From Candidatus Omnitrophota bacterium (GTDB lineage: Bacteria; Omnitrophota; Gorgyraeia; Tantalellales; Tantalellaceae), in contig JAYEOV010000058.1 of NCBI GenBank assembly GCA_034723315.1, positions 1-63,842 of the forward strand: 63,842 nucleotides of DNA, in the 5' to 3' direction. The notes beneath the pieces are model-generated. The model did not search any database. It was given only the letters and a program-made list of their open reading frames with translations, and was not told the DNA's origin. Shown here in pieces: positions 1-23,153 of the stretch. Position 1 is the first letter of the stretch. Every line of letters starts with the position of its first letter. The position numbers and the translations under genes were made by a program.

Positions 1-59
1 CAGACCTTGACATTGACATTTTCCCCGGAGGGCATAAATTATGTCAATGTCAAGGTCTG
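1..59. repeat. Perfect 19-bp inverted repeat (REP-like hairpin), possibly cut by the window edge
   Basis: cagaccttgacattgacat (1-19) is the exact reverse complement of atgtcaatgtcaaggtctg (41-59); 21-nt loop; lies just downstream of the 943-aa gene. Confidence 0.85.
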
Positions 60-9720: not shown

Positions 9721-9851
9721 GCCGTCCTTCCTTACAGTCCCTATTTTACACTCAAACTCGCCACTTTCAAATAAAAAATAGGAACAGATGCCTTTTCTTA
9801 ATAACACGAAGGGCTCCGTCCCTGTTAATAAAAAGCTCCTTTCGCTGCTAG

Positions 9852-9872
9852 AACGGGGTTATGAAATGGGTT
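9852..9872 (+). repeat. Solo 21-bp end of MITE family A
   Basis: ctag|aacggggttatgaaatgggtt|ctaa matches the right end of the full 176-bp copies. Confidence 0.85.
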
Positions 9873-9899
9873 CTAAGAACGAAAAGAGCTTATGGATCA

Positions 9900-9976
9900 T
9901 GGCGCGCCTGCCCAGATTCGAACTGGGGGCCTACTGCTTAGGAGGCAGCCGCTCTATCCAGCTGAGCTACAGGCGC
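9900..9976 (-). tRNA. tRNA-Arg (anticodon CCT)
   Basis: Minus strand reads GCGCCTGTAGCTCAGCTGGATAGAGCGGCTGC-CTCCTAA-GCAGTAGGCCCCCAGTTCGAATCTGGGCAGGCGCGCCA: full cloverleaf, TTCGAAT T-loop, encoded CCA. Confidence 0.97.
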
Positions 9977-10002
9977 GTGGTGTTTAATTTGTTTCAAATA
10001 AA
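9957..10002. repeat. att direct repeat, left copy (5' 20 nt of the tRNA plus upstream DNA)
   Basis: tccagctgagctacaggcgcg-tg-gtgtttaatttgtttcaaataaa. Confidence 0.92.
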
Positions 10003-10050
10003 GGATTTAAAAATTTACCCTCTGAATCCCAATCCCGCCAATTTACCCCG

Positions 10051-10071
10051 GGTGTCCATATAGGTGTCCAT
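10051..10071. repeat. Putative integrase arm-type site (GGTGTCCAT x2)
   Basis: ggtgtccatataggtgtccat; a 19/21 match occurs near the other island end at 17145-17165. Confidence 0.65.
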
Positions 10072-10080
10072 CTCTTCCCG

Positions 10081-10106
10081 CCGTAGGAGCGGCCTCTGGC
10101 CGCGAA
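10081..10106 (+). repeat. REP-like unit of family C (GTAGGAGCGGCC...GGCCGCGAA)
   Basis: ccgtaggagcggcctctggccgcgaa matches the arms at 26110 and 47240. Confidence 0.75.
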
Positions 10107-10108
10107 CC

Positions 10109-10351
10109 CTACTCTATCATTCCCCGCCCTGACACATCAACCGCGTTCTTCTTATGATCCTGGGACAAATGAGCGTATCTTAATGTCATTGTCAGATCAG
10201 CATGTCCCAAAAGTTCTCTCACGGTATTCAGATCAACACCCGCCATCACCAGATGAGACGCAAAAGTATGTCTTAGATCGTGAAATCGAAAATTTATTAT
10301 ATTAAATTTCTTAAGCGCTGTAAAGAATGATTTCCTCACCGATATAAGCAA
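10109..10351 (-). pseudogene. Tyrosine recombinase/integrase C-terminal fragment
   Basis: [27 protein letters not shown]...MTLRYAH (H-x-x-R, H and Y catalytic residues); only 80 aa, N-terminal domains missing. Confidence 0.9.
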
Positions 10352-10373
10352 AAAAAACGCACTTTAATCTGCT

Positions 10374-11132
10374 CTAGTCCTCGGTAGTTACTTCCACTTT
10401 CGCGGAACGTATGTCCCCTTCTAAGCCTTTATATCTGAGCCATTCGAATTTTGGCTCGGCAGAATGCCAGGCATAGGCTTTCGGGAAAAAGACCTTCACT
10501 ATATCAAGAAGCCCAAGGCGGGGGTCGAGCTGCAGCTTATACGCGCGTCTCTTGCGGCCGTTAATTTTCACATCCTCTGTCTTGACTACACTGAGATCGA
10601 TGTTGTAGAATCCCGGCTCCTCGCTCACCATCTGTATCTTTGCTATTCTCCCTCCTTTCTCGAGCATCTTCTGGATATAAAACCCCAGGAGGAGCCTGTT
10701 CACAGCGTCCTTTGTGAACTTGAACTTTTTCGTGCGGGAGATCTTTTTAGGAATGTCCTCGTGGAGGCAGGTGACGCTCTTTTTGACGGGGTCGTAATCC
10801 TGTTTTTCGAGCCTGATCATGTTGCCGTCTTCGTCGAACACGCGTTTTACAAGTTTGAGCGGCGTGACGTTCTCTTCCGTGCTTTCGAATTCCATCTCCG
10901 CCTTCCAGGATATCGGCCCTTCGAAACTGGAATACACGCCTTCGCCCTTCTCCGTCAGTATATATACATCGCCCTCTTTCTTCCTTATCTCGGTCTCGGC
11001 TTCCCACCGCTTGCCGCCTTCCATATCGCGGCATACATAACCCGTCTTCACTACATCTTCCCCTATAGAGAAAACCGGGTTTGCTCCAGCAAGCATAAAA
11101 AAGCATAGTGATAGTATAAACAGTTTCTTCAT
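10374..11132 (-). CDS. Exported hypothetical protein (252 aa), beta-strand-rich, possibly DUF3108-like
   Basis: Signal peptide MKKLFILSLCFFMLAGANPVFS; alternating beta-strand pattern; family assignment tentative. Confidence 0.8.
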   Translation of the reverse strand: MKKLFILSLCFFMLAGANPVFSIGEDVVKTGYVCRDMEGGKRWEAETEIRKKEGDVYILTEKGEGVYSSFEGPISWKAEMEFESTEENVTPLKLVKRVFDEDGNMIRLEKQDYDPVKKSVTCLHEDIPKKISRTKKFKFTKDAVNRLLLGFYIQKMLEKGGRIAKIQMVSEEPGFYNIDLSVVKTEDVKINGRKRRAYKLQLDPRLGLLDIVKVFFPKAYAWHSAEPKFEWLRYKGLEGDIRSAKVEVTTED

Positions 11133-11141
11133 GATACAGTT

Positions 11142-11170
11142 ATTTTAACACTTTAGAAGGCCTACCGCAA
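11142..11170 (-). promoter_or_regulatory. Putative sigma70 promoter of the 252-aa gene
   Basis: TTGCGG-17 bp-TAAAAT on the minus strand; the -10 ends 9 nt before the ATG. Confidence 0.45.
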
Positions 11171-11207
11171 GAAAGCGCGGGGTCTGGAGGAATGCTTTAG
11201 ATCTTTT

Positions 11208-11618
11208 TTACCTGAACAATATATATTTCCTTGCGAAGAAATTCCAGATAACAACGATCATCGTGGCGACCAATTTCGAGAACAAATAGTGAAAATTCAC
11301 ATTTTCAGTAAAAAACCAGATAATATACTGGTTCAGGATAAGTCCCACAATTCCGATCACGATAAAAATCGAGATCTCAAAGTATCTGTTTTCGAATGTA
11401 CGCTTGTCAAAGACCCATCTGACATTCATGATATAGGCTGTTATTGATCCTAGTAAAAATGCCACTAAAGCCGCTGTTAAATAGTATATTTTGAATATTT
11501 CTACGAATACGATCAGCGAGCAATAATCCACTCCATACGCAAGAGCGCCCGACAAGACATAGCGGAATGCCTGTATAAAAACATTGTCTGTTGACTGTCT
11601 GAAAAGCTTCTCTACCAT
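11208..11618 (-). CDS. GtrA family membrane protein
   Basis: QAFRYVLSG, YIMNVRWVF, final WNFFARKYILFR; four TM helices. Confidence 0.9.
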   Translation of the reverse strand: MVEKLFRQSTDNVFIQAFRYVLSGALAYGVDYCSLIVFVEIFKIYYLTAALVAFLLGSITAYIMNVRWVFDKRTFENRYFEISIFIVIGIVGLILNQYIIWFFTENVNFHYLFSKLVATMIVVIWNFFARKYILFR

Positions 11619-11628
11619 ATTTGACTTG

Positions 11629-11649
11629 AACCCGTTTCATAACCCCGTT
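11629..11649 (-). repeat. Solo 21-bp end of MITE family A
   Basis: aacccgtttcataaccccgtt|ctag, abutting the TAG stop of the acyltransferase at 11650. Confidence 0.85.
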
Positions 11650-12411
11650 CTAGTATCTTTTTGCTGATTCCGGGGTGGTCTCTTCTTTGCTTTCTAAGGC
11701 TATCAGCAAAGCCTCTCTTACCCTGTTCGCTGCCGCTGAAGAGAATTCTCTATTCTCCAGAGGATAAAGTTCATCAAAACTGACCGGAGGCAGGATCTTT
11801 ACTTTTACTTTTCCGGGATGGATAAGTTTACTGCCTTTTCTTTGGATATTTATACTCCCGTCAATCGCTACAGGAACAACCCTGACCTTTGCTTCCTTAA
11901 GAAAGGAAAAACTAAAAGATTTAAATCTCTGCAGTTTTTCATTATAAGAACGTGTGCCTTCGGGGTATAAAACAATCGAATTTCCGGCTTTTATGAGCTC
12001 TATTACAAATTGATACGTTTTTAATGACTTTCTTATATTGGTTCTCTCTATTGGAATGTATTTCTGGAGCCTCATATATGTTCCAAAGATCGGAATATCA
12101 AAAAGCTCCTGTTTGGCCATAAATAAATACTGGCCCGGAATAGCCCTGAAAATAATAGGCCAGTCCAGATCACTCTGGTGACTGGACATATATACCACGG
12201 TTTCATTTTTAGGCAGGTTCTCCCGGCCTGTGATTTCCAGTTTGATACCGCCTATTTTCATGAGTGTCCAGGCCCAGAACTGCTCAGCTTTTCTGTACAT
12301 CTTCTTATTCTTAGGCCAGATTACGGAATCAAAAACAATGCCTAGTAGCACTATTACTATCCAGTCTATCCACCATATTACTGAATGTATGATCCTTATG
12401 AATTTCTTCAT
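11650..12411 (-). CDS. plsC: PlsC-type lysophospholipid acyltransferase
   Basis: HX4D motif SSHQSDLD, FMAKQELF, YPEGTRS, VVPVAIDG. Confidence 0.92.
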   Translation of the reverse strand: MKKFIRIIHSVIWWIDWIVIVLLGIVFDSVIWPKNKKMYRKAEQFWAWTLMKIGGIKLEITGRENLPKNETVVYMSSHQSDLDWPIIFRAIPGQYLFMAKQELFDIPIFGTYMRLQKYIPIERTNIRKSLKTYQFVIELIKAGNSIVLYPEGTRSYNEKLQRFKSFSFSFLKEAKVRVVPVAIDGSINIQRKGSKLIHPGKVKVKILPPVSFDELYPLENREFSSAAANRVREALLIALESKEETTPESAKRY

Positions 12412-12412
12412 C

Positions 12413-13156
12413 TTATCCCTTTAACTTCACAACAATATCTCTAAGTTTTCTGCCCACTTCCATGGAGGATTCTCTATTAATAGTATCATAATAATCTTCA
12501 AAATAAACGGGTTTGCCGATAGTTACCTTAACTTCTCCCGGGATCTTGAGCTTCCAGGCCCCTTTAGGCAAAACAGAAAAGGTCCCATCGATCGCTATCG
12601 GAATTACGGGCTTTCTGGACTGCTGGATGATAACAGAAGCTCCTCTTCCGAATTCATTTATATTCCCGTCTAATGTCAACTTCCCTTCCACGAAAATAAC
12701 AAAGGATCTGCCCGCTTTCAAGAGGTCTATTATCTTGTGGATCGTCTTGATCGACTTTTTCCTGTCTTTTCTGTCTAAAGAAAGAAAACCCGCCTTCGTG
12801 ACATGGCGTCCTATTACAGGAACTTTGAACAACTTCCTCATTATGACAAATTTAAAAGGGAAGGGCAAATATTTTAGCAAAATAAATATATCGATATAAC
12901 TTTGGTGATTCGGAGTGTAAATAACATTCGTGTCGCGTGGGATATTTTCCAGGCCTGAAACTTTTACCCTGATAAGCGAGACTTTGAGGATAAGAGAGCC
13001 CCAGAGTATTGCCCCTTTTTGATAAAATAATTTTTTCTTATCTTCATCTCTTATAAATGAACTAACTACATAAGAAACAGCATGTATGATTATGCAGGAG
13101 GAAAATACAAAAACCCAGAATACAGCGCTGTGAATAGCCCTGAATATCTCGATCAA
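12413..13156 (-). CDS. plsC: Second PlsC-type acyltransferase
   Basis: PNHQSYID (HX4D), FVEGK, VIPIAIDG; likely TTG start at 13156 overlapping the upstream TGA, behind GAGGA. Confidence 0.9.
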   Translation of the reverse strand: MIEIFRAIHSAVFWVFVFSSCIIIHAVSYVVSSFIRDEDKKKLFYQKGAILWGSLILKVSLIRVKVSGLENIPRDTNVIYTPNHQSYIDIFILLKYLPFPFKFVIMRKLFKVPVIGRHVTKAGFLSLDRKDRKKSIKTIHKIIDLLKAGRSFVIFVEGKLTLDGNINEFGRGASVIIQQSRKPVIPIAIDGTFSVLPKGAWKLKIPGEVKVTIGKPVYFEDYYDTINRESSMEVGRKLRDIVVKLKG

Positions 13157-13734
13157 TTCACTTCCTCTCTCTTTTTTATGCCCAGCCGGCACACAACACG
13201 GTCAGAACATAAGTGAACACCTATGTACAAAAGAATCGTGACTACCGCGACTTCCGCAGGTGGAACATACACGATCGAGCTTAAAAGAATAGCGCCTATA
13301 ATCCAATCTGCCTGATCCCAGGGGAACCAGGTTTTTCCAGACGGCTTGCCGAGCCTGCGCTTAATGAAGCTTTCTATTAAATCTCCCAAAAGGGCTCCTC
13401 CGCCCATTAAAGCGCCTATTAAGATAAAATTAAACTGACCATAATCGATTACGGTGTTATTTTTAAAAAAATCACTGTTAAAGAACAAAAGTGCCTGGAT
13501 GCCGGCTACAAGTATTCCCGTTATAACCCCGACCACAAGCCCTCTCCATGTTTTATTTTTCCCGAAAATTTCACGCCCATTTAATGTTTTCCCAGAATCA
13601 ACAGGCACCGCAAGCTTCTCCAGGGGTTTTTTAATTACTTCGGGCAAGGGAAGCCGGTTACCACAAGAAGCGTTATGGTTACCCAGGGCAGCCGGCAATA
13701 AATACCAAAGACAGGCAAATATTAGTTTGAGCAT
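13153..13734 (-). CDS. carS: CDP-archaeol synthase (CarS/DUF46) family CTP transferase
   Basis: PVDSGKTLNGREIFGKNKTWRG and GALLGDLIESFIKRRLG...G.....DQAD motifs; multi-TM. Confidence 0.85.
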   Translation of the reverse strand: MLKLIFACLWYLLPAALGNHNASCGNRLPLPEVIKKPLEKLAVPVDSGKTLNGREIFGKNKTWRGLVVGVITGILVAGIQALLFFNSDFFKNNTVIDYGQFNFILIGALMGGGALLGDLIESFIKRRLGKPSGKTWFPWDQADWIIGAILLSSIVYVPPAEVAVVTILLYIGVHLCSDRVVCRLGIKKREEVN

Positions 13735-13737
13735 GAT

Positions 13738-14319
13738 CTATTTGTTGAGCTTTCTGTAAACATGAGATATTCTCTGCAGCACCGTAAGGTGGGAAAAAGC
13801 GGCGATTATTACCAGTCCCCAAAATACCTGGTTTATGCAAAAGCCGGCCCCCAGTATTATTATCCTGACTGACCGGGGCATAAGTCCGACTTCACATTCT
13901 TGATCCAGACTCTCTGCTTTGGCCCTGGTATAACTCACGGCCAAAGATCCCACTATTGCAATTACAACCAATATAACGTAATCCGGCTCACCCAATTTTA
14001 AAAAGTGAAGTAATATCCCAAAGTAAATAACCGAATCCGCGTAACGATCAAGTACGGAATCCCAAAAATCGCCGAAAACTGTAGTCTTGCCTGTAGCCCG
14101 GGCTACACTTCCATCAAGAGCATCAAAAAAACCGGCGACCCAGATAAGTATACCTATGATCAAATAACTAAGTTCACCTTTAGCAATAAAAAAAGCGACA
14201 AGGCAGTTAACTAAAAGCCCCAGGAAGGTTACCTGGTTTGGAGTTATTTTTGTCTTTGCTAAAAGATTGCCCGGAGCTTGCGCAATTACCCGAATGAGTT
14301 TCCCTGTTGGATCGGACAT
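13738..14319 (-). CDS. CDP-alcohol phosphatidyltransferase, phosphatidylinositol(-phosphate) synthase-like
   Basis: TPNQVT, DALDGSVARATG...FGDFWDSVLDRYAD signature, SYTRAKAESL. Confidence 0.9.
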   Translation of the reverse strand: MSDPTGKLIRVIAQAPGNLLAKTKITPNQVTFLGLLVNCLVAFFIAKGELSYLIIGILIWVAGFFDALDGSVARATGKTTVFGDFWDSVLDRYADSVIYFGILLHFLKLGEPDYVILVVIAIVGSLAVSYTRAKAESLDQECEVGLMPRSVRIIILGAGFCINQVFWGLVIIAAFSHLTVLQRISHVYRKLNK

Positions 14320-14325
14320 TTTAAA

Positions 14326-15471
14326 TTACGCCTTAGTCCCTTTCCTTTTACCCTTAACTCTTTTTGCCTTAGCCCTTTTCTTCTTCCCTTTGCCGTAAGT
14401 CGCGATAAAATCCTCTACCATCTCGCGGGCTGTATTGTCATCATACTGGACGGGGGGTGACTTTTTGAAATACGCGCTGGGGCCTAAAAGCGCGCCTGAA
14501 ATTCCGTTATCTAACGCAATCTTCGCGCAACGGACCGCATCTATAACGACTCCAGCGGAATTGGGTGAGTCTTCCACCGAAAGCCTGCATTCTAAATTCA
14601 TGGGAAGATCTCCGAAATGTCTGCTTTCTATGCGCAAGAAACAAATCTTATTATCTTTCTGCCACGGCACATAGTCGCTCGGCCCGATATGAACATCATC
14701 TTTATCTATAGCAATACCCCTATTCTGTATCTGAGAGACAACTGCATTTGTTTTTGATATCTTTTTTGAGATAAGGCGCTCTTCTTCTTTCATGTTAAGA
14801 AAATCCGTATTGCCTCCGGTGTTAAGCTGGTAGGTGTGATCTACGGGCATACCTCTATCCAGGAATAGATTTGTCAGGATCCTGTGGAGGATCGTTGCCC
14901 CTACCTGTGACTTTATGTCGTCACCTATGATCGGCAGGCCCTTTTTCTTGAAGCGCGTCTGCCAGTATTCTTCTCTTGCAATAAAAACAGGAACACAGTT
15001 TATAAAAGCACATCCTGCATTTAATACCTGTTCGACATACCATTTTGTAGCTTCTTCGGAACCCACGGGCAAGTAACTAATAACCACATCGGTCTTTGTT
15101 TCCCTCAGAATGCCTGCTACATCATCGGTTTTCCCCGGGGCTTTCTTAACTATCTTCGATACATACTTGCCAAGCCCATCATGGGTCATCCCACGGTGGA
15201 CCTTAACCCCAAGACGGGGAACTTTGGCGAAAACAGCAGCATTGTTAGGTTTCGCATAAATAGCTTCGCTTAGATCTTTGCCTACCTTATTTTTATCAAT
15301 ATCAAAAGCAGCTGAAAACTCTATATCTTTTATGTGATAACCGCCCAGGTTAACGTGCATCAGTCCCGGTATAAGATCTTTATCCTTTGCATTCTTATAG
15401 TATTTCACTCCCTGGACCAGCGAAGAAGCGCAATTGCCGACTCCGATGATCGCAACTTTAATTTTAGACAT
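14326..15471 (-). CDS. ino1: Inositol-3-phosphate synthase (myo-inositol-1-phosphate synthase)
   Basis: [54 protein letters not shown]; Lys-rich C-terminal tail. Confidence 0.96.
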
Positions 15472-15499
15472 AACTTTATGCTCCTCTATTTTTATGGAT

Positions 15500-15745
15500 C
15501 TATACTAAAGACGCGCATCTGTCTTCTATATATTTTGTCACATCTCCAACAGTTAACATTTTTTCAGCTTCTTCACTCGGTATCTCAATATCAAAATCCT
15601 CTTCCAGTATCACAACCATCTCAACAATATCAAGTGAATCTGCACCTAGATCGTCTATAATTCTTGCCTCTTCTTTCACATTTTGATCTTTTAAGTCAAG
15701 ACGGTTGGCAAAAAGGCCCTTTATTTTACCCAGGATATCCGACAT
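15500..15745 (-). CDS. acpP: Acyl carrier protein
   Basis: [14 protein letters not shown] phosphopantetheine motif; start at ATG 15745 behind GAGGAGG. Confidence 0.93.
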
Positions 15746-15790
15746 ATTTCCTCCTCTAAACCATTGGAACACAAATTAATTGGAGCAATC

Positions 15791-15818
15791 ATTATACAAT
15801 GATAAAATTCTAAATCAA
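15791..15818 (-). promoter_or_regulatory. Putative promoter of the lipid cassette
   Basis: TTGATT-16 bp-TATAAT on the minus strand; an adjacent tandem agatatatataac x2 (15819-15844) could be an operator. Confidence 0.4.
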
Positions 15819-15932
15819 AGATATATATAACAGATATATATAACATAGGGTCAAGAGTTAATTTAGACAAAAAAATGAAAATAATTCAGTTCAGTCTTCA
15901 AAATATGCGAGAGAAGAAAAAGGAATCTACAC

Positions 15933-16973
15933 ATGAAGAAAAAGATCAGTAAAATGCCTGTAAAGTATTTAAAATTTTTAACAAACGTTAAAAATCAAAT
16001 ACAACGTGCCCAAATAAAGGCAGCTGTATACGTTAACCGCGAATTAATAGCACTTTATTGGAATATTGGCAAACAGATTTTACAACTCCAGAAACAGGAA
16101 GGATGGGGAAAGTCAATTGTGGAACAGTTATCAAAAGACCTGCGCCGTGAATTCCCCTCTCTAAAGGGTTTTTCCCCACGAAATTTATGGGAAATGCGCA
16201 GTTTTTACGATGTTTATAAAGATGCTATAAATCTGCAACAACTTGTTGCAGAAATTCCCTGGGGACATAATCTGGCCCTTATTCATAAAATCAAGCATAA
16301 CACTGAAAGACTATGGTATATCCGTAAAACCATAGAGCATGGGTGGAGTCGTAATGTTTTGATCCATCAAATTGAAAGTAACGCATATCACCGGTCAGGT
16401 AAGGCTATTACAAATTTTAGAAAAACATTGCCACCCATCCAGTCCGATCTCGCCCACCAAATAATAAAAGACCCTTACAAATTTGACTTTTTAACCATAG
16501 AAGATAATAGACGAGAAAAAGAACTAGAGAATAATCTTATCCAACATCTCGAACAATTCTTACTCGAGTTAGGTGTGGGGTTCGCGTTTGTTGGCCGACA
16601 AAAGCACCTTGAAATCGGAGATCAAGATTTTTACATTGATCTGCTTTTTTATCATACTCGTTTACACGCCTATATTGTTATAGAGTTAAAGAATAGTGAA
16701 TTCAAACCCGAATATGCCGGCAAGATGAATTTTTATCTAAACGCAGTAGATGATCTATTCAAACATCCACAAGACCACCCAAGTATTGGAATAATATTAT
16801 GCAAAACAAAAAACAAAGTCGTTGTTGAATACACTCTGCGTGATACACATAAACCTATCGGTGTTTCCGAATACAAACTAACTAAGAAACTTCCTAAAAA
16901 CTTCAAAGGAAGCTTGCCGACAATAGAAGAACTGGAACATGAACTTTCCCAAAAAAAAGAGAAAAAGATATGA
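15933..16973 (+). CDS. YhcG/DUF1016 family PD-(D/E)XK nuclease-domain protein
   Basis: LYWNIG, GWG..IVEQLS.DL, GFSPRNL, KDPYKFDFL, FLLELGVGFAFVG, IDLLFYH, VIELK, PSIGIILC. Confidence 0.93.
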   Translation: MKKKISKMPVKYLKFLTNVKNQIQRAQIKAAVYVNRELIALYWNIGKQILQLQKQEGWGKSIVEQLSKDLRREFPSLKGFSPRNLWEMRSFYDVYKDAINLQQLVAEIPWGHNLALIHKIKHNTERLWYIRKTIEHGWSRNVLIHQIESNAYHRSGKAITNFRKTLPPIQSDLAHQIIKDPYKFDFLTIEDNRREKELENNLIQHLEQFLLELGVGFAFVGRQKHLEIGDQDFYIDLLFYHTRLHAYIVIELKNSEFKPEYAGKMNFYLNAVDDLFKHPQDHPSIGIILCKTKNKVVVEYTLRDTHKPIGVSEYKLTKKLPKNFKGSLPTIEELEHELSQKKEKKI

Positions 16974-17137
16974 AATGCGCAATATACACGAGGGTCAGTA
17001 CAGATAATTAAGCCGAGAAAGAATACAATTCAGGTGAATCGCAGGAAGAGAAGATCAGGTCCTACGGCTACTACACCTTAAATCTCAGTAATATTGGTCT
17101 TGACTTGGGGAGTATTTCAGACCATCAGTTTGAATAG
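16970..17137 (+). pseudogene. Serine recombinase N-terminal relic with in-frame stop
   Basis: ATGA overlap with the YhcG stop; translates MKCAIYTRVSTDN*AEKEYNSGESQEEKIRSY (YxRVST catalytic motif); similarity is lost after about 17065. Confidence 0.85.
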
Positions 17138-17144
17138 GATATGA

Positions 17145-17165
17145 GGTGTTCATATAGGTGTCTAT
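17145..17165. repeat. Putative integrase arm-type site, right end
   Basis: ggtgttcatataggtgtctat, 19/21 identical to 10051-10071, same orientation. Confidence 0.65.
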
Positions 17166-17369
17166 AAGAGCCCTCAAATCGTGGAAATTGCCATTAGGCG
17201 CTACAAACAAAAAATCGCTGTAACTAGTTATAAAATAACGTAATTATAGCGATTTAAAGGGTTCGCGAAAAGTGTATGGTTCGGCTAAGAAGGCAGCCGC
17301 TTGAATGAAACCACGACTTACGGAACGATAGCGAACGTAAGTCGTTTGGTCAAATTTATGCAAAGCCTG

Positions 17370-17415
17370 TCCAGCTGAGCTACAGGCGCGCTGTGTTTAA
17401 TTTGTTTCAAATAAA
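17370..17415. repeat. att direct repeat, right copy (displaced 5' fragment of tRNA-Arg)
   Basis: tccagctgagctacaggcgcg-ct-gtgtttaatttgtttcaaataaa. Confidence 0.92.
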
Positions 17416-17432
17416 AGTGCGGGATTAATAAT

Positions 17433-18194
17433 TTATTCCAAAATATTTTTTATTACCATAGCCTTCACCTGCTCTAAGGAAAATGGCTTGGTAATATAAT
17501 CGTCCGCTCCTTCCTTCAGAGCAACTGCAATAATATCGTCATCTTTAACACCTGATATCATTATGACAGGAATATTTTTATTAAATTTTTTTATGTCACC
17601 TAAAACCTCTAAACCATTGCGCCCGGGCATCGCGATGTCCAGAAAAATAAGAGATATTCTCTCCTTCCGTACGATCTCCATGGTCTTTCGGGGATCGGTT
17701 GTGGCAATAACATTATAACCACTTTTCTCCAGAAAACCCTTGATAACCTTACAGACACCTTCATCATCGTCAATGACCAGGATATTTGGTATATGTTCTT
17801 TATCCTCAATCTTTGGGTGCGCGTATTTTTTCAACAACTTATTTATCCTAAACTTCAAAGTATCTAAGGGGGCTGTTTTTAGTATGTATTCAGCGGCGCC
17901 TTTTCCCTTGGCCTTGGTAATAGTTTCAGCATCGTATCCATAACCGGTAAGGATAGCAATAGGAATTCCGGAATTTTGTTCCCGCATCTTCTCCAATATT
18001 TCCATTGCATCTTCACCGGGTAATTTTATATCTAAAAGCACCAGATCCGGGGTATTAGCACTGAATTCCTCAAGGCCTGCCGCTCCTGTCAGCGCCGTAT
18101 AAACCTCATAACCTTCTTTCTTTAGAACGATTTTAATGTAATCCAGCGTTCCCGGATTGTCGTCGATAGCCAATATCTTTACTTTATTTTTCAT
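17433..18194 (-). CDS. Tandem receiver-domain protein (REC-REC, no output domain)
   Basis: Two intact REC motif sets: AIDD/LLDIKLP/LTG/ILK and VIDDD/FLDIAMP/ISG/TKPF; AAGGAG RBS. Confidence 0.9.
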   Translation of the reverse strand: MKNKVKILAIDDNPGTLDYIKIVLKKEGYEVYTALTGAAGLEEFSANTPDLVLLDIKLPGEDAMEILEKMREQNSGIPIAILTGYGYDAETITKAKGKGAAEYILKTAPLDTLKFRINKLLKKYAHPKIEDKEHIPNILVIDDDEGVCKVIKGFLEKSGYNVIATTDPRKTMEIVRKERISLIFLDIAMPGRNGLEVLGDIKKFNKNIPVIMISGVKDDDIIAVALKEGADDYITKPFSLEQVKAMVIKNILE

Positions 18195-18253
18195 GGTTTT
18201 ATCTCCTTAAATCTGTAATAAAAAAATTATTTTTCACTGTCGATCAACATTAA

Positions 18254-18874
18254 CTACCTACTCTGTCCTTTCACAAATCGTTCACCCTTTTTTAATTCAT
18301 TCGCATACTTACGCAACTTGAAACTTGCCGTTCTTAACTCGGGGCGAACAACCAACGCTATTATAAGCCCGCCGGCAAGACCGCTTAAACAATCCAAACC
18401 TAAATCTCTCAATTCAAAGCTTCTATTCATCACAAAGAGTTGAAGTGTTTCGTCTAAAAATGCACAGAAAAATATTACCACACTTACCCAAAAATAAAGC
18501 ATCTGAGTTGTAATACTATGCCTCAATGCCCTGAATAACAGTAAACTTAAAATCCCATATTCGAGAAAATGGAGACGATCCCACGCCTTCTCTACCATAC
18601 TCAGCACCAAAAAACATGTCAAAAATATCCCTATAAACCAGATATAAGCGCTTATTTCTGCCCTGCCTTTTTTTCTTTTTAAAAAAAGATATATTAGCAA
18701 AATCATGAATGTTGAACCAAACAGTACCCACATCAAAACCTTTATTACAAAATCAGCATCGTGAGCTATTGAATAAAGTTTCAACCGTCCCGGCAAGAAC
18801 AGTGTCAACAGTACCAATGCGAAAAATACGCTTGCAATTGTCCAATCTACTATTATTTTACTGCGATAGCGCAC
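18254..18874 (-). CDS. VanZ family membrane protein
   Basis: DRLHFLEYGIL, AFLDETLQLFVMNRSFELRDL..D; GTG start. Confidence 0.8.
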   Translation of the reverse strand: MRYRSKIIVDWTIASVFFALVLLTLFLPGRLKLYSIAHDADFVIKVLMWVLFGSTFMILLIYLFLKRKKGRAEISAYIWFIGIFLTCFLVLSMVEKAWDRLHFLEYGILSLLLFRALRHSITTQMLYFWVSVVIFFCAFLDETLQLFVMNRSFELRDLGLDCLSGLAGGLIIALVVRPELRTASFKLRKYANELKKGERFVKGQSR

Positions 18875-18902
18875 AAAAGCCTCCGTGAAGCATTTACTCC
18901 AG

Positions 18903-19078
18903 AACCCATTTCATGACCCTGTTCGTTACGAGGCTGAGCGAAAAAGCCATTGACAAGGCCTGAGGGGCAAAATGCCCGGAAACGTAGCCGGTGCGCTACG
19001 TTGAGGACATTTTGCCCCGAAAACGCGGTCAATGGGTTTTGCAGCCAGCCACAGTAGAACAGGGTTATGAAATGGGTT
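18903..19078 (+). mobile_element. MITE family A, complete 176-bp copy with CCAG duplication
   Basis: ccag|aacccatttcatgaccctgtt ... aacagggttatgaaatgggtt|ccag; 21-bp terminal inverted repeats. Confidence 0.9.
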
Positions 19079-19178
19079 CCAGTAAGTCCCCGCAAGATTT
19101 TTAATTTTAAACTTTTAACTTTTAATTTTAAAATCTCTTATACCAAATTCGCTTCCAACTGTAAAGAAAGTTTTGGAA

Positions 19179-19934
19179 TCATGCCGCGGCGCTTACGATA
19201 CGACCGTATTCACGGTCCATAATCTCGTGTACATGCTCCGCCATCTCTTTCCTGGACCTCCCTTCGGGATACACCGGCGGAAGAACATGCATTTCAGCGT
19301 CGACAACGGGATACCCCAGCACCTGCCAGATATGCGGGAGAAGCGTCATGTCGCCGTACCAGCATACGGTAGGCCTTCCCGGGACTTCATTATAACGCGT
19401 CAGAACCGGAATAACCGGAAGGTTCCCGAACGTAGCCGCCTCGAAGGAAGTGGATTTAAAAGGAAGAATGCCGTTATTACCGTCAGTACTTGTCCCTTCC
19501 GGGTAAACTATAAGGTACATCCCCCGCTTCATGGTTTTCGAAAAATCCCGCAATGCCTTTCTGGACGCGGATCTCGATATCCTGTCAACCCATACGGGGT
19601 GGGTCAACGCGATCATCTGTCCGATAACGGGCCATTTTGCGATCTCCGTCGTGGAGGTATAACGCAGCGGAAAAACCGTTCCATGCGTGATTATATCAAT
19701 ATAACCGAGATGATTTGAAACCACCAGGCCGGCGGGAACATCCTGAATATCACCGGATATCCTGATGCGCAGGCCTATGATCTTCGCAATACCTTTGGCC
19801 CATACGCGGAGAAGACCGGATATTTCCCTCCTCCCTCTCCAGCCGCCGAAATGGTACGGCATCGACCAGATAATGACGAACAAGGTGAACAGCACAAGCG
19901 CCGTGAACCGGTACAAGCGGAGAAAAAATGCCAT
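19179..19934 (-). CDS. olsA: Lyso-ornithine-lipid O-acyltransferase-like protein (PlsC superfamily)
   Basis: SNHLGYID, YPEGTSTDG..ILPFKST, VCWYGDM; directly downstream of the OlsB-like gene; start ATG 19934. Confidence 0.75.
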   Translation of the reverse strand: MAFFLRLYRFTALVLFTLFVIIWSMPYHFGGWRGRREISGLLRVWAKGIAKIIGLRIRISGDIQDVPAGLVVSNHLGYIDIITHGTVFPLRYTSTTEIAKWPVIGQMIALTHPVWVDRISRSASRKALRDFSKTMKRGMYLIVYPEGTSTDGNNGILPFKSTSFEAATFGNLPVIPVLTRYNEVPGRPTVCWYGDMTLLPHIWQVLGYPVVDAEMHVLPPVYPEGRSRKEMAEHVHEIMDREYGRIVSAAA

Positions 19935-19938
19935 GATA

Positions 19939-20751
19939 TCAATCTTGTTTTTCTTTGTAGCGGAAATGCCGCAAATAGCGTTGTGGGACATTATTGATAT
20001 CGACCAGTATGAAGAAATCGATCGTCCCGAATTCTCTGTCCAGCGCGGGTTCCCCGCAGATGCGCGCCCCCAGCCTGAGATATCCTTTGAATATCGGCGG
20101 GATGTGTTTTCTTAGCGCGTCTTTATCTGCCAGGATTTTCTTTATTTCATGATCGGGAGGCTTTTTCAGCACGAACCCCGGACGAGGCTTAACGGAAAAA
20201 TCGGTGTGTACAGAATAGGACTGGCGTAAATATTCGTATAAAGCCCATCCTGTCTTCGGATCTGTTTCTTCAAGGCTCACGCATCCGAGCATGTAAGAAA
20301 GTTTCGCCCTGTTCAACAACTCGGAGATCGCGCCCCAGAGAAGAGCGACTACAGCGCCTGATCTAAACTCGGGAGACACGCACGTGCGCCCCAGCTCTAT
20401 ACACTTGTCCGCGATCCTGTAGAGTCCCCTTATTTGATACTCTCTTGACGAATAAAAACCTTTAGCGGAATTCGCGACACTCCCGAGATGGGCCCGATAC
20501 GTGCCGATAACTCGCCCGGTATTTTTTTTCATCACCAGCAAGTGGAGACAGTATTCATCAAATTCGTCAAAGTCAATGCCGTATCTTTCGGAAATCTCAA
20601 GGCCCCTCCCCTGTTCGATGTTAAATACCTCGTAACGCAAACGCTGGGCCTTTTCGACTTCTTCGTGATTTTCCGCCAGCTTGACCATGAACTGTCCGGT
20701 CTCTACCAGCACGGGAGGTATCATAATATTTTTTGGCACGTTTGTGATCAT
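19939..20751 (-). CDS. olsB: GNAT-family ornithine N-acyltransferase-like protein
   Basis: AQRLRYEVF, DEFDEYCLHLLV, IGTYR, ELGRTCV.PEFRSG, PPIFKGYLRLGA.ICGEPA.D.EF.T.D. Confidence 0.85.
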   Translation of the reverse strand: MITNVPKNIMIPPVLVETGQFMVKLAENHEEVEKAQRLRYEVFNIEQGRGLEISERYGIDFDEFDEYCLHLLVMKKNTGRVIGTYRAHLGSVANSAKGFYSSREYQIRGLYRIADKCIELGRTCVSPEFRSGAVVALLWGAISELLNRAKLSYMLGCVSLEETDPKTGWALYEYLRQSYSVHTDFSVKPRPGFVLKKPPDHEIKKILADKDALRKHIPPIFKGYLRLGARICGEPALDREFGTIDFFILVDINNVPQRYLRHFRYKEKQD

Positions 20752-20781
20752 TATTTATCTCTTATTTTCTTTGGCGAACGC

Positions 20782-21417
20782 TCAATAACTTCTCACCAGG
20801 AAATAAATACCGGCAAAACCGAACACCGCGGCAAGACCATACCTGAAATGCGCGATAAACCTGTCCGCCTTTTTACCGATCGCCCAGAAAAGCAGACCGA
20901 CCGGACTGAAAACGAAAAAAGAACCGACTGCTATTCCTGCGGCGAAAAATATCTTATGATCGGAAAAGGTATAAAATTTCAGAGACAATAAAGCTGTCAG
21001 AAGCAACAGCGCCGCAATACTGCCCGGGTGTAAGAGTGTTATAAAAAAAACGGACAGGGAATGGGCAATTTGTCCAATAGCCCCTTTAGACGCAAAGCGG
21101 ACTTCCCGTCCGCTAAGGCCCCGCGCGCGCGACAGAGCCGTTATGATCCCCAGGAAAAGACCCATAATGATAAAGGCCACACCGGCGATCAGGAAAAAAA
21201 GGCTCTCATGCTTCTCAAAAATCTTTTGTACAGGCCCGGCGCCAAGGGATATAATGAAAGCAAGGATACCGTTCCCCGCCACGACCGCCAGGACCGTCAA
21301 ATTCAGACGTTCCCTGTCATGAACAAGCGCGGCGTCGGCGACCAAGGCTCCCGCCGGTCCGAAAGGAGCTCCCAAAATCATACCTGCGACGACCGACACA
21401 AGAAAAAGTCCGATCAT
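20782..21417 (-). CDS. LysE-like translocator membrane protein
   Basis: About 6 TM helices, N-terminal G..LGAPFGP and internal TLLHPG motifs. Confidence 0.6.
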   Translation of the reverse strand: MIGLFLVSVVAGMILGAPFGPAGALVADAALVHDRERLNLTVLAVVAGNGILAFIISLGAGPVQKIFEKHESLFFLIAGVAFIIMGLFLGIITALSRARGLSGREVRFASKGAIGQIAHSLSVFFITLLHPGSIAALLLLTALLSLKFYTFSDHKIFFAAGIAVGSFFVFSPVGLLFWAIGKKADRFIAHFRYGLAAVFGFAGIYFLVRSY

Positions 21418-22181
21418 TTTCCAACCTTCTCCTGTATATTTTCCGCATTATCCGACACGGACACGAATTCTATCCAATCCAGGTCGGCTGCGGCATCCGT
21501 CCCCGTGTACTGGCTATTACACGAAACACTCATGTAGACCTTCCCGGGACGGAATCCCCAGGCATTCTCAAAATCCTTCATAAAATCTCTTTCATCCACA
21601 AACCATTCCTTTTTAACGGCGTCCTCCCTGTCCCTCAGGGTAAACCATTTGACCTTTATAGTTCCCCCGCCGTAAGCACAGTTTCCTTCGGTTCCTTTAG
21701 GGGTCTCCGTATCCCACCTGTATGAAATTGATTTTTTTCCCAATCCTTTCCCCGTGCCAACATAGATGCCTATAGCCTGGTCGTCTTTCTTCCTCTCTCT
21801 TCCGTCAGCCCCTTCCGGCAGGGTAACAGCCCTCCAGCGCCAACGCAGCACGGGCATCTTTTCAAGATCAACGCCCTTTACTTTACAGATCAGACTCGCG
21901 CTGGCTTTATCCGCCTCCACGCGCAGGAAAGACAGCCCATCCTTATCGTCTCTGACTACGCTGAAAATCGCGGGAGGAGTCCCCGGTTTCCCCCTCTTCT
22001 CCCATCCCCGGGGTATGACCGGCCTGCCTTCCGGGGAAACAGAACCGAAATCCTCCCTCCACCCCACGACCCTGACCTTTATCTTTTCCGGTCTTACAAG
22101 AAAATGGCCCCGCAAAAATAATGCCAGTAGGATAAGGATTATAGCAATTAACGCAACAACAGGAAGAGAACGGATCTTCAT
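21414..22181 (-). CDS. DUF3047-like exported protein
   Basis: N-terminal anchor; LRWRWRA..LP.GAD.R...KDD.A..IYV, SISYRWD, W..DERDF..DF..AWG; 4-bp overlap with the next gene. Confidence 0.7.
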   Translation of the reverse strand: MKIRSLPVVALIAIILILLALFLRGHFLVRPEKIKVRVVGWREDFGSVSPEGRPVIPRGWEKRGKPGTPPAIFSVVRDDKDGLSFLRVEADKASASLICKVKGVDLEKMPVLRWRWRAVTLPEGADGRERKKDDQAIGIYVGTGKGLGKKSISYRWDTETPKGTEGNCAYGGGTIKVKWFTLRDREDAVKKEWFVDERDFMKDFENAWGFRPGKVYMSVSCNSQYTGTDAAADLDWIEFVSVSDNAENIQEKVGK

Positions 22182-22193
22182 AATAATAAGAAA

Positions 22194-22254
22194 TATATTC
22201 CGGGGATATGCTCGGGCGAGTTAAATAGTCATATACAACAGGCGTGTCCCCGGA
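22194..22254 (+). repeat. Family B hairpin repeat (TTCCGGGGACA...GTGTCCCCGGAA)
   Basis: tatattccggggatatgctcgggcg...acaacaggcgtgtccccgga. Confidence 0.85.
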
Positions 22255-22268
22255 GCCGGGTCCTCCTT

Positions 22269-23153
22269 CTATATCCTGTGTTTAGTGCTCCTGCTGCTGG
22301 GGCGTCTCTTTTTTCTCGCCCTCTTATTCAGTCTGTCCTGCGCTTCCTGCTCCTGTTCTTCCATCATCTTCCTCAGTTTCTGCATGCAGGCGGCCTCGAT
22401 CTGGCGAACCCTTTCGCGGGTTATGCCAAAATGTTTCGCGGTATCCCTCAAGGTATGGGAAACACCGTCCTTCTCCAGCCCGAACCTGAGGGTAAGTATC
22501 TTTCTCTCGCGTTCCGTCATCTTCTCCAATAGCCCCTCGATCCTTTCGTGAAGCAGGAACTTGGCAAGTTCATCTACCGAATTGACGATGCTTTCATCCT
22601 CGATAAGGTCCATGAACTCGGAGTCTCCCGACTCTCCAATAGGGGCGTTGAGGCTGGCTATGTTCGATGCCATATGGTTGAGCTGGCGGACGCGGGCCAC
22701 AGGCATTTTCATTTTTTTTGCTATATCACTCATATGGGGGTTCTTCTTCAGTTTCTGTGACAGCTGTTTCCTCACTTTCTGGAACCGCATGAGCATCTCC
22801 ATAACGTACACCGGTATCCTTACGGTCTTACCCTGATTCGCCACGGCCCTGGTGATATACTGTTTGATCCACCAGGCCGCGTAAGTGCTGAAACGGTATC
22901 CTTTGTCCGGATCGTATTTACTGACGGCCTTCATAAGCCCCAGGTTACCCTCTTCGATCAGGTCCAGCATCGGAACGCCGAGATAACTGTACTTTTTCGC
23001 TATATTGATGACAAGCCTCAGGTTGCTCTTTATCATCTGCTGGCGCGCTTTCTTATTACCCTTTTTTACCTTTTGCGCCAGTTCTTTCTCCTGCTCAGGC
23101 GTAAGAAGCGGGAGATCGCGTATGTCTTTTAAGTAAAGCTTTATCGCATCCAT
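22269..23153 (-). CDS. Sigma-70 family group 1/2 sigma factor, RpoS-like (no region 1.1)
   Basis: IKLYLKDI, NLRLV..IAKKY, DLIEEGNLGL, RFSTYAAWWIKQ, TRERVRQIE; start ATG 23153 (the ORF-track extension is repeat-derived). Confidence 0.92.
   Translation of the reverse strand: MDAIKLYLKDIRDLPLLTPEQEKELAQKVKKGNKKARQQMIKSNLRLVINIAKKYSYLGVPMLDLIEEGNLGLMKAVSKYDPDKGYRFSTYAAWWIKQYITRAVANQGKTVRIPVYVMEMLMRFQKVRKQLSQKLKKNPHMSDIAKKMKMPVARVRQLNHMASNIASLNAPIGESGDSEFMDLIEDESIVNSVDELAKFLLHERIEGLLEKMTERERKILTLRFGLEKDGVSHTLRDTAKHFGITRERVRQIEAACMQKLRKMMEEQEQEAQDRLNKRARKKRRPSSRSTKHRI

Follow-up and report, generated by a model that had tools for sequence, protein, structure and literature searches.

A decayed tRNA-linked island in a Candidatus Omnitrophota bacterium that probably carries the 5' half of tRNA-Arg(CCT) and entered the gene at its anticodon stem-loop

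Genomic islands that integrate into tRNA genes usually carry a fragment of the 3' end of their target: of the 3919 islands catalogued by Islander, 3760 have a 3' fragment and 159 a 5' fragment (Hudson, Lau & Williams 2015, PMC4383910), and the configuration filter of that program expects 5' fragments upstream of the tDNA (PMC4383910). Archaeal 5'-distal tRNA integrations (TKV4, pTN3-type elements, CalSub-E1) are cited, together with Zhao & Williams 2002, in PMC6563490. Here we describe a bacterial locus of this kind in Candidatus Omnitrophota bacterium (GenBank assembly GCA_034723315.1, contig JAYEOV010000058.1, positions 1 to 63,842, hereafter the window). We conclude, with a probability of roughly 0.85, that positions 10003-17366 are the remnant of a site-specific integrative island that would have entered the tRNA-Arg(CCT) gene at the anticodon stem-loop in reversed (5') orientation. 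The 5'-fragment configuration is not new; it is rare (~4% of Islander islands) and documented, and the copy in the window is a new, decayed example of it.

The duplication that delimits the island is the largest direct-repeat family of the region, a pair of 49-nt sequences (9954-10002 and 17367-17415, 46/49 identical by repeat search) that scores E = 6.9e-15 in a whole-genome search, far above chance, and that consists, in tRNA orientation, of 26 nt of upstream leader followed by tRNA nt 1-23. A 46-bp repeat composed of tRNA nt 1-20 plus 26 nt upstream, claimed by a first-pass annotation of this DNA, is contained in this pair and is real. The claim holds for the leader and the tRNA 5' end; its extent does not, since the duplicated piece comprises nt 1-43 rather than nt 1-20. 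The repeat search returned an 18-nt match to the anticodon arm at 17284-17301, separated from the rest of the displaced fragment by a 65-nt hairpin-containing repeat element (Table 1). Further copies of this element (84-88% identity) occur in this genome on contigs C8, C51 and C7, with 19 nt on C10, and multiple alignment shows tRNA homology breaking off and resuming exactly at its ends. Once the insert is taken out, leader positions -26 to -1 and tRNA nt 1-43 agree in 63 of 69 nucleotides, the exceptions being -3, -2, 21, 35, 38 and 42, and similarity ends after nt 43. On this alignment the block of identity between attL and attR reaches into the anticodon stem-loop and stops there, as it does in intact relatives and as is characteristic of the anticodon-loop class, and a duplicated piece made of leader plus nt 1-43 makes a crossover in the anticodon loop most likely. 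The insertion is also a mapping pitfall: it hid half of the displaced fragment, so that a reader or an automatic finder would misplace the crossover.

Gene and fragment are placed as in catalogued islands. An intact tDNA and a cognate fragment that includes nt 1 both lie on the minus strand of one replicon, the fragment 7.4 kb upstream of the tDNA in the transcriptional sense, and the distance from repeat start to repeat start (7413 nt) falls within the 2-200 kb that Islander allows. Coordinates and strands bear out the order already proposed by the annotation, in which the displaced 5' fragment is followed by the cargo and then by the intact tRNA.

Table 1. Positions of the tRNA gene, the island and its components within the window
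Feature	Position	Strand	Details
tRNA-Arg(CCT), intact	9900-9976	minus	ARAGORN; sole tRNA in the window
tRNA-proximal att copy	9934-10002	minus	Leader -26..-1 (9977-10002) and tRNA nt 1-43 (9976-9934)
Tandem arm-type repeat, near arm	10051-10071	minus	ATGGACACC-TAT-ATGGACACC
REP-like repeat copy	~10075-10108 (start approximate)		TTCGCGGCCAGAGGCCGCTCCTACGG; >80 genome copies
Integrase remnant, 80 aa	10109-10351	minus	Pfam PF00589, 61 bits, profile positions 110-170
Best sigma-70-like match	10296-10324	minus	TTTACA-17-TATAAT, 11/12; inside integrase remnant, points at tRNA; consensus match only
Inositol-phospholipid module	10341-15831	minus	Pfam + NCBIfam
DUF3108	10374-11132	minus	
GtrA	11208-11618	minus	
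PlsC-type acyltransferase, first	11650-12411	minus	
PlsC-type acyltransferase, second	12413-13192	minus	
CarS-like CTP transferase	13153-13734	minus	
PIP-synthase-like CDP-alcohol transferase	13738-14319	minus	Closest to (archaetidyl/phosphatidyl)inositol-phosphate synthases
myo-inositol-1-phosphate synthase	14326-15471	minus	
Acyl carrier protein (ACP)	15500-15772	minus	
YhcG/DUF1016 PD-(D/E)XK nuclease	15933-16973	plus	Pfam PF06250, PF17761; in island, outside shared lipid module
Tandem arm-type repeat, far arm	17145-17165	minus	ATAGACACC-TAT-ATGAACACC; same orientation, ~200 nt inside far end
Displaced fragment, part 2	17282-17301	minus	tRNA nt 24-43, anticodon arm; mismatches at nt 35, 38, 42
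65-nt hairpin-containing repeat element	17302-17366	minus	Inserted between tRNA nt 23 and 24 of displaced fragment
Displaced fragment, part 1	17367-17415	minus	tRNA nt 1-23 (17389-17367) and leader -1..-26 (17390-17415)

All genes of the segment are transcribed towards the tRNA, except that encoding YhcG. The one nearest to the tRNA, co-oriented with it and 132 nt upstream of its nt 1, is an integrase remnant that scores well above the PF00589 threshold (61 versus 27.1 bits), yet lacks ~270 residues: in alignment it keeps the HxxR, GH and RY motifs of the C-terminal catalytic part and is without the N-terminal portion, including the first catalytic Arg. A six-frame search found no close intact paralogue of this integrase in the same genome. 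A second C-terminal integrase remnant (C42:1352-1534), 66% identical to that of the window, has an internal stop and lies near a contig start with no adjoining tRNA. The near-arm tandem repeat is homologous to the C-terminal coding end of the integrases of intact relatives, and its far-arm counterpart stands in ~390 nt of non-coding DNA between the YhcG gene and the far att copy. At up to 4 mismatches the 21-nt tandem motif has only 4 sites in the genome (1.8 Mb), and because 2 of them are at the island ends, the motifs look like arm-type integrase sites.

Relatives of the remnant were sought by six-frame searches of 40 related genomes, all of them from other genera and identified below by handles of the form G017. 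The closest matches (59-63% identity) come from three family members, in all of which the integrase gene or its remnant precedes tRNA-Ser(GCT), with 15-130 nt between the int stop codon and tRNA nt 1. In G017 a 384-aa integrase ends 15 nt before nt 1 of the co-oriented tRNA and in G029 a 352-aa integrase ends 22 nt before it, while G009 holds a remnant, like the window. The G017 element is the most instructive: tRNA nt -1 to 40 recur as a perfect 41-bp direct repeat 9.9 kb upstream, the tandem motif TAAGCACCAAAYAAGCACCA occurs in both island arms in the same layout as in the window, AAA_25 and MerR-type HTH proteins typical of small islands are also encoded, and the integrase matches HP1 integrase (PDB 1aih) with E = 2.7e-13. 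Intact relatives of the same integrase clade with verified 5'-half repeats (G017 here, others below), together with the integrase remnant and the arm-type repeats, uphold the annotation's view that the element supplied the 5' portion of its tRNA; a tandem tRNA duplication was rejected on the same grounds. The 3' ends of these tRNA-Ser(GCT) genes are also of note. In G017 a 555-aa large serine recombinase open reading frame (ORF; L031, G017:C3, 6890-8557) converges on the tRNA 3' end with a 33-nt overlap, and both gene ends are apparently occupied, the 5' half by the tyrosine-integrase island and the 3' end by the serine recombinase. In G009 (L032, G009:C11, 8746-14094), where the upstream remnant is in 5' mode, the tRNA 3' end has two perfect 16-nt repeats 0.5 and 5.3 kb downstream, which looks like a classical tandem array.

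An integrase-alignment scan of one genome per prokaryotic species extended this comparison to 80 loci, mostly from Omnitrophota and other uncultured phyla. A tRNA or tmRNA lies within 600 nt of the int 3' end in 64 of the 80, and none precedes int; 30 are co-oriented with int (5' mode) and int converges on the tRNA's or tmRNA's 3' end in the other 34 (classical 3' mode). Repeats, sought within the 10 kb fetched per locus, were verified in 5' mode at three loci (nt -2..43, -2..38 and -19..40) and in 3' mode at nt 32-76, 31-74, 30-87 and 31-78. The repeats in one mode mirror those in the other, with only the anticodon loop common to both; this points to the anticodon stem-loop as the likely core site, with strand exchange in the loop. 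Orientation is clustered on a quick maximum-likelihood tree, where at least 11 switches are needed among 65 labelled integrases, whereas shuffled orientation labels need 22 on average and never fewer than 16; the closest relatives of the window's integrase belong to a tree half dominated by 5' mode.

Taken together, this anatomy suggests an element family that encodes a tyrosine integrase with an arm-binding N-terminal domain and whose attP would duplicate the target tRNA's 5' half (leader to ~nt 40) beside the int 3' end and would have arm-type sites as a tandem pair in either arm. Strands would be exchanged within the anticodon loop, which is 7 nt long and bordered on both sides by the stem's dyad. 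The tRNA would then be rebuilt as a chimera of an island 5' half and a host 3' half, and the host's own 5' half and leader would be pushed to the far end of the island, where they would be the displaced fragment now seen. Decay probably followed in place: the integrase would have been reduced to its last 80 codons exactly at the lipid-module border, a REP (repetitive extragenic palindromic)-like repeat settled after its stop codon, the 65-nt element split the displaced fragment, and the att copies came to differ at 6 of 69 positions. A truncated integrase, inserted repeats and diverged att copies argue that the element is fixed and immobile by itself; judged from its sequence, the island is an immobile fossil, a decayed member of the tRNA-gene islands. 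It is not an active (excisable) island, as its integrase is truncated, no attB or attP form was found in the metagenome scans, and no excision joint in the contigs.

The payload would comprise a self-contained inositol-phospholipid operon from another Omnitrophota genus and a YhcG-type nuclease. DNA identity of the lipid module is 91.4% to G004 (over 5182 nt) and 84.7% to G024, against 71-78% for housekeeping genes of the same genomes compared with those of the window; the housekeeping range set against the 91% match is 74-77%. The copies of the module in G020 and G009 stay at this background level (~70-75%). By these identities the module was acquired horizontally from another Omnitrophota genus. 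It follows a tadA-like deaminase gene in G004, G020 and G009, a position that looks native and makes a G004-like lineage a plausible donor. In G004 (L024, G004:C7, 9790-15118) the module lies 73 nt upstream of tRNA-Ser(GCT) and in G024 (L023, G024:C34, 5681-11092) 67 nt upstream of tRNA-Thr(TGT), both spacers having promoter-like sites; one module beside three different tRNAs is unlikely to be chance. Around the module in G004 and G024 we found no repeats of at least 12 nt beyond chance, and no integrase remnant beside it in either. The ACP gene (15506-15778) is an indel: exactly these 271 nt are missing in G004, the same skip occurs in a freshwater metagenome contig, and G024 is partial. A complete inositol-phospholipid operon on an island, moved between Omnitrophota genera, suggests that membrane-lipid traits of these uncultured bacteria may travel on tRNA-linked islands.

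Ten of ten family relatives examined lack an island upstream of their tRNA-Arg(CCT), so the comparison with relatives that the first-pass annotation proposed does show the unoccupied state; the flanks are too diverged to yield a base-exact attB. In nine the tRNA comes directly after a sigma-factor gene orthologous to 22269-23153. In G002 it comes after an OlsA-like acyltransferase gene orthologous to 19179-19991, with a gap of 304 nt, and the upstream block is as in the window minus VanZ, the response regulator and the island. No integrase remnant was found upstream of tRNA-Arg(CCT) in G022, G007 or G002. G002 and the present genome share the placement of this tRNA after an ornithine-lipid-like block (DUF3047-like, LysE, OlsB-like, OlsA-like; 17433-23153 versus L009-L021), which in G013 and G021 lies 7-9 kb downstream of the tRNA. 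In G022 (L010, G022:C112, 10055-10976) 920 nt separate the sigma gene from tRNA-Arg(CCT) and contain an ORF that resembles, by eye, a REP-associated Y1 transposase and is flanked by GC-rich palindromes; the 31 nt that lead up to that tRNA resemble the near att copy of the window, a 20-nt similarity of the leader scoring E = 0.028. From a hydrothermal-vent metagenome, Logan contigs of a strain ~98% identical to the present one cover the far junction (17348-17732) and the junction between the truncated integrase gene (int') and the module (10241-10676). A single long Logan joint (9871 to 18898) was discarded as an att joint because it passes through a REP repeat with a 23-nt side. In JGI metagenome scans a 45-nt repeat pattern had no match, and the single match to a 23-nt leader pattern was rejected as an unrelated chance hit.

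Repeated sequences other than att sites are frequent in and around the island. Copies of the REP-like TTCGCGGCCAGAGGCCGCTCCTACGG family lie directly 3' of the integrase-remnant stop codon and also upstream of tRNA-Arg(ACG) on C51. A second REP-like imperfect palindrome, GAACGGGGTTATGAAATGGGTTC, has ~30 genome copies, of which the window holds those at 9848-9873, 11628-11653, 18901-18924 and 19055-19079; one copy is inside the lipid module, between GtrA and the first acyltransferase, and the freshwater contig (run X4) is gapped exactly there. Within the far arm, 17062-17119 is 98% identical over 58 nt to C61:14624-14681, contains TTGACT, and has its counterpart ~430 nt upstream of a tRNA-His; this spot on C61 lies close to where a classical tmRNA-linked island with a 352-aa integrase would be expected to have its far end. 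The G+C content of the island (0.35-0.45) is below that of the flank downstream of the tRNA (0.50-0.53), and the 1.5 kb beyond the far repeat (VanZ, response regulator) is also at ~0.39.

Since the DNA beyond position -26 of tRNA-Arg(CCT) is all island, the gene would need to be transcribed from island-borne signals or by read-through. It is the single gene with anticodon CCT that ARAGORN detects in the whole genome (1.8 Mb, 64 contigs). Many tRNA genes of this genome have a clear TTGACA-17-TATAAT promoter 15-50 nt upstream. The only strong sigma-70-like match here is ~320-350 nt upstream of the tRNA, within the integrase remnant (Table 1), and weaker matches occur at the equivalent integrase codons of intact relatives. 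Across the 30 loci in 5' mode, promoter matches in the spacer are only slightly above an int-internal control (8.3 versus 7.4), and in about one third of these loci a promoter-like site places its -35 element between -37 and -47. A broader reading that joins these observations is put forward tentatively, and we think it rather doubtful as a whole: a large lineage of anticodon-loop-targeting tyrosine integrases, found across many uncultured phyla, would have switched orientation at least 11 times among 65 integrases, and in 5' mode the host tRNA (here the only tRNA-Arg(CCT), the reader of AGG) would come under island-borne transcription, either by transcripts reading through int or from a promoter within its 3' end. 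If this were true, the island would govern how much of that tRNA is available and would be difficult to lose.

Several observations weigh against integration at the anticodon loop as set out above. The integrase is a fragment, linked to the repeats by position and by its relatives. Neither an empty site nor a circular junction was found in the 40 genomes, the JGI metagenome scans or the Logan contigs; the last, which are contigs rather than raw reads and drop rare variants, contain no att-to-att (7.4-kb-skip) joint, so the circular or excised forms envisaged by the annotation did not materialize there. No sigma-70-like match lies in the 132-nt spacer, and no promoter for the tRNA was identified with confidence. 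The mismatches at nt 35 and 38 fall in the presumed overlap region and require later decay of the dead fragment. If, instead, the island is real and the crossover took place inside the 46-49-bp block (in the leader or nt 1-23), the match at 17282-17301 would be an element arm or a coincidence. The uninterrupted repeat is indeed only 49 bp, and two of the six mismatches are in the anticodon loop, where fresh attL and attR should be identical. We nevertheless judge this location improbable: the 65-nt insert is a repeat element in its own right, bounded exactly where the homology breaks, and uninterrupted repeats in intact relatives reach nt 38-43, those of the classical mode starting at nt 30-32. 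Still less credence, indeed very little, attaches to explanations with no site-specific integration at all, in which the tRNA 5' region was duplicated locally or left a pseudogene, or in which assembly or binning produced a chimera. The genome is a 64-contig metagenome-assembled genome, and the tRNA-int' junction (9850-10240) has no independent contig cover because REP-like repeats, which adjoin the tRNA, break contigs there. However, another sample contains both the far junction and the int'/module junction, synteny with relatives, whose tRNA-Arg(CCT) comes after that same gene block, holds for the upstream flank, and an integrase remnant, arm-type repeats at both ends and an exact correspondence with intact relatives would not be expected from a chimera.

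The att repeats and the integrase remnant may be an old island shell into which the lipid module came later by a separate recombination, a second event that removed the first ~270 integrase codons; we regard this as a live possibility, at odds somewhat short of even. The module borders are sharp: DNA homology to G004 begins at 10341, precisely where the integrase remnant starts, and stops at 15831, before the YhcG gene, and the same borders recur in the freshwater metagenome contig. The apparently native site after the tadA-like gene in G004, G020 and G009 points the same way, as does the lack of repeats and integrase in G004 and G024, whose modules adjoin other tRNAs. On the other side, these two modules also lie ~70 nt upstream of a tRNA, and one of these, tRNA-Ser(GCT), is the target of related 5'-mode integrases, which hints that such islands carry the module; no mechanism for a separate insertion is visible.

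Compared with the 5'-fragment islands of Islander and TIGER, the locus likewise has an intact tRNA, a co-oriented 5' fragment upstream of it, tyrosine-integrase sequence in between and a length inside the 2-200 kb range; it differs in that its integrase is a remnant and its fragment is split by a repeat, so that an automatic finder would shorten the fragment or reject the island. A documented element that carries a tRNA 5' part resides in another host phylum and uses another integrase; like the present one, it must also bring upstream signals because it carries the 5' rather than the 3' part of the tRNA. TKV4, the pTN3-type elements and CalSub-E1 are archaeal and in part have SSV-type integrases, whereas the window's element is bacterial and would have had an arm-binding integrase. 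The use of a single symmetric site in either orientation by one integrase clade, with repeats that mirror each other, supports the anticodon stem-loop itself as the recognised core, and intact candidates such as the G017 element offer themselves for study of the choice of orientation and of subsequent tRNA transcription. An anticodon-loop sublocation class of tRNA integrases was reportedly defined by Williams in 2002, and the loop crossover proposed here agrees with its classical description. With HP1 Int, a classical anticodon-loop integrase, the element family of the window has the tyrosine recombinase catalytic domain in common (by the match of the G017 relative), and in either case the block of identity stops within the anticodon stem-loop. 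In the window, however, the orientation on the tRNA is inverted and identity extends from the anticodon loop through the 5' end into the leader, while the classical orientation of HP1 Int is used by 34 of the 64 tRNA-linked loci of the wider integrase clade.

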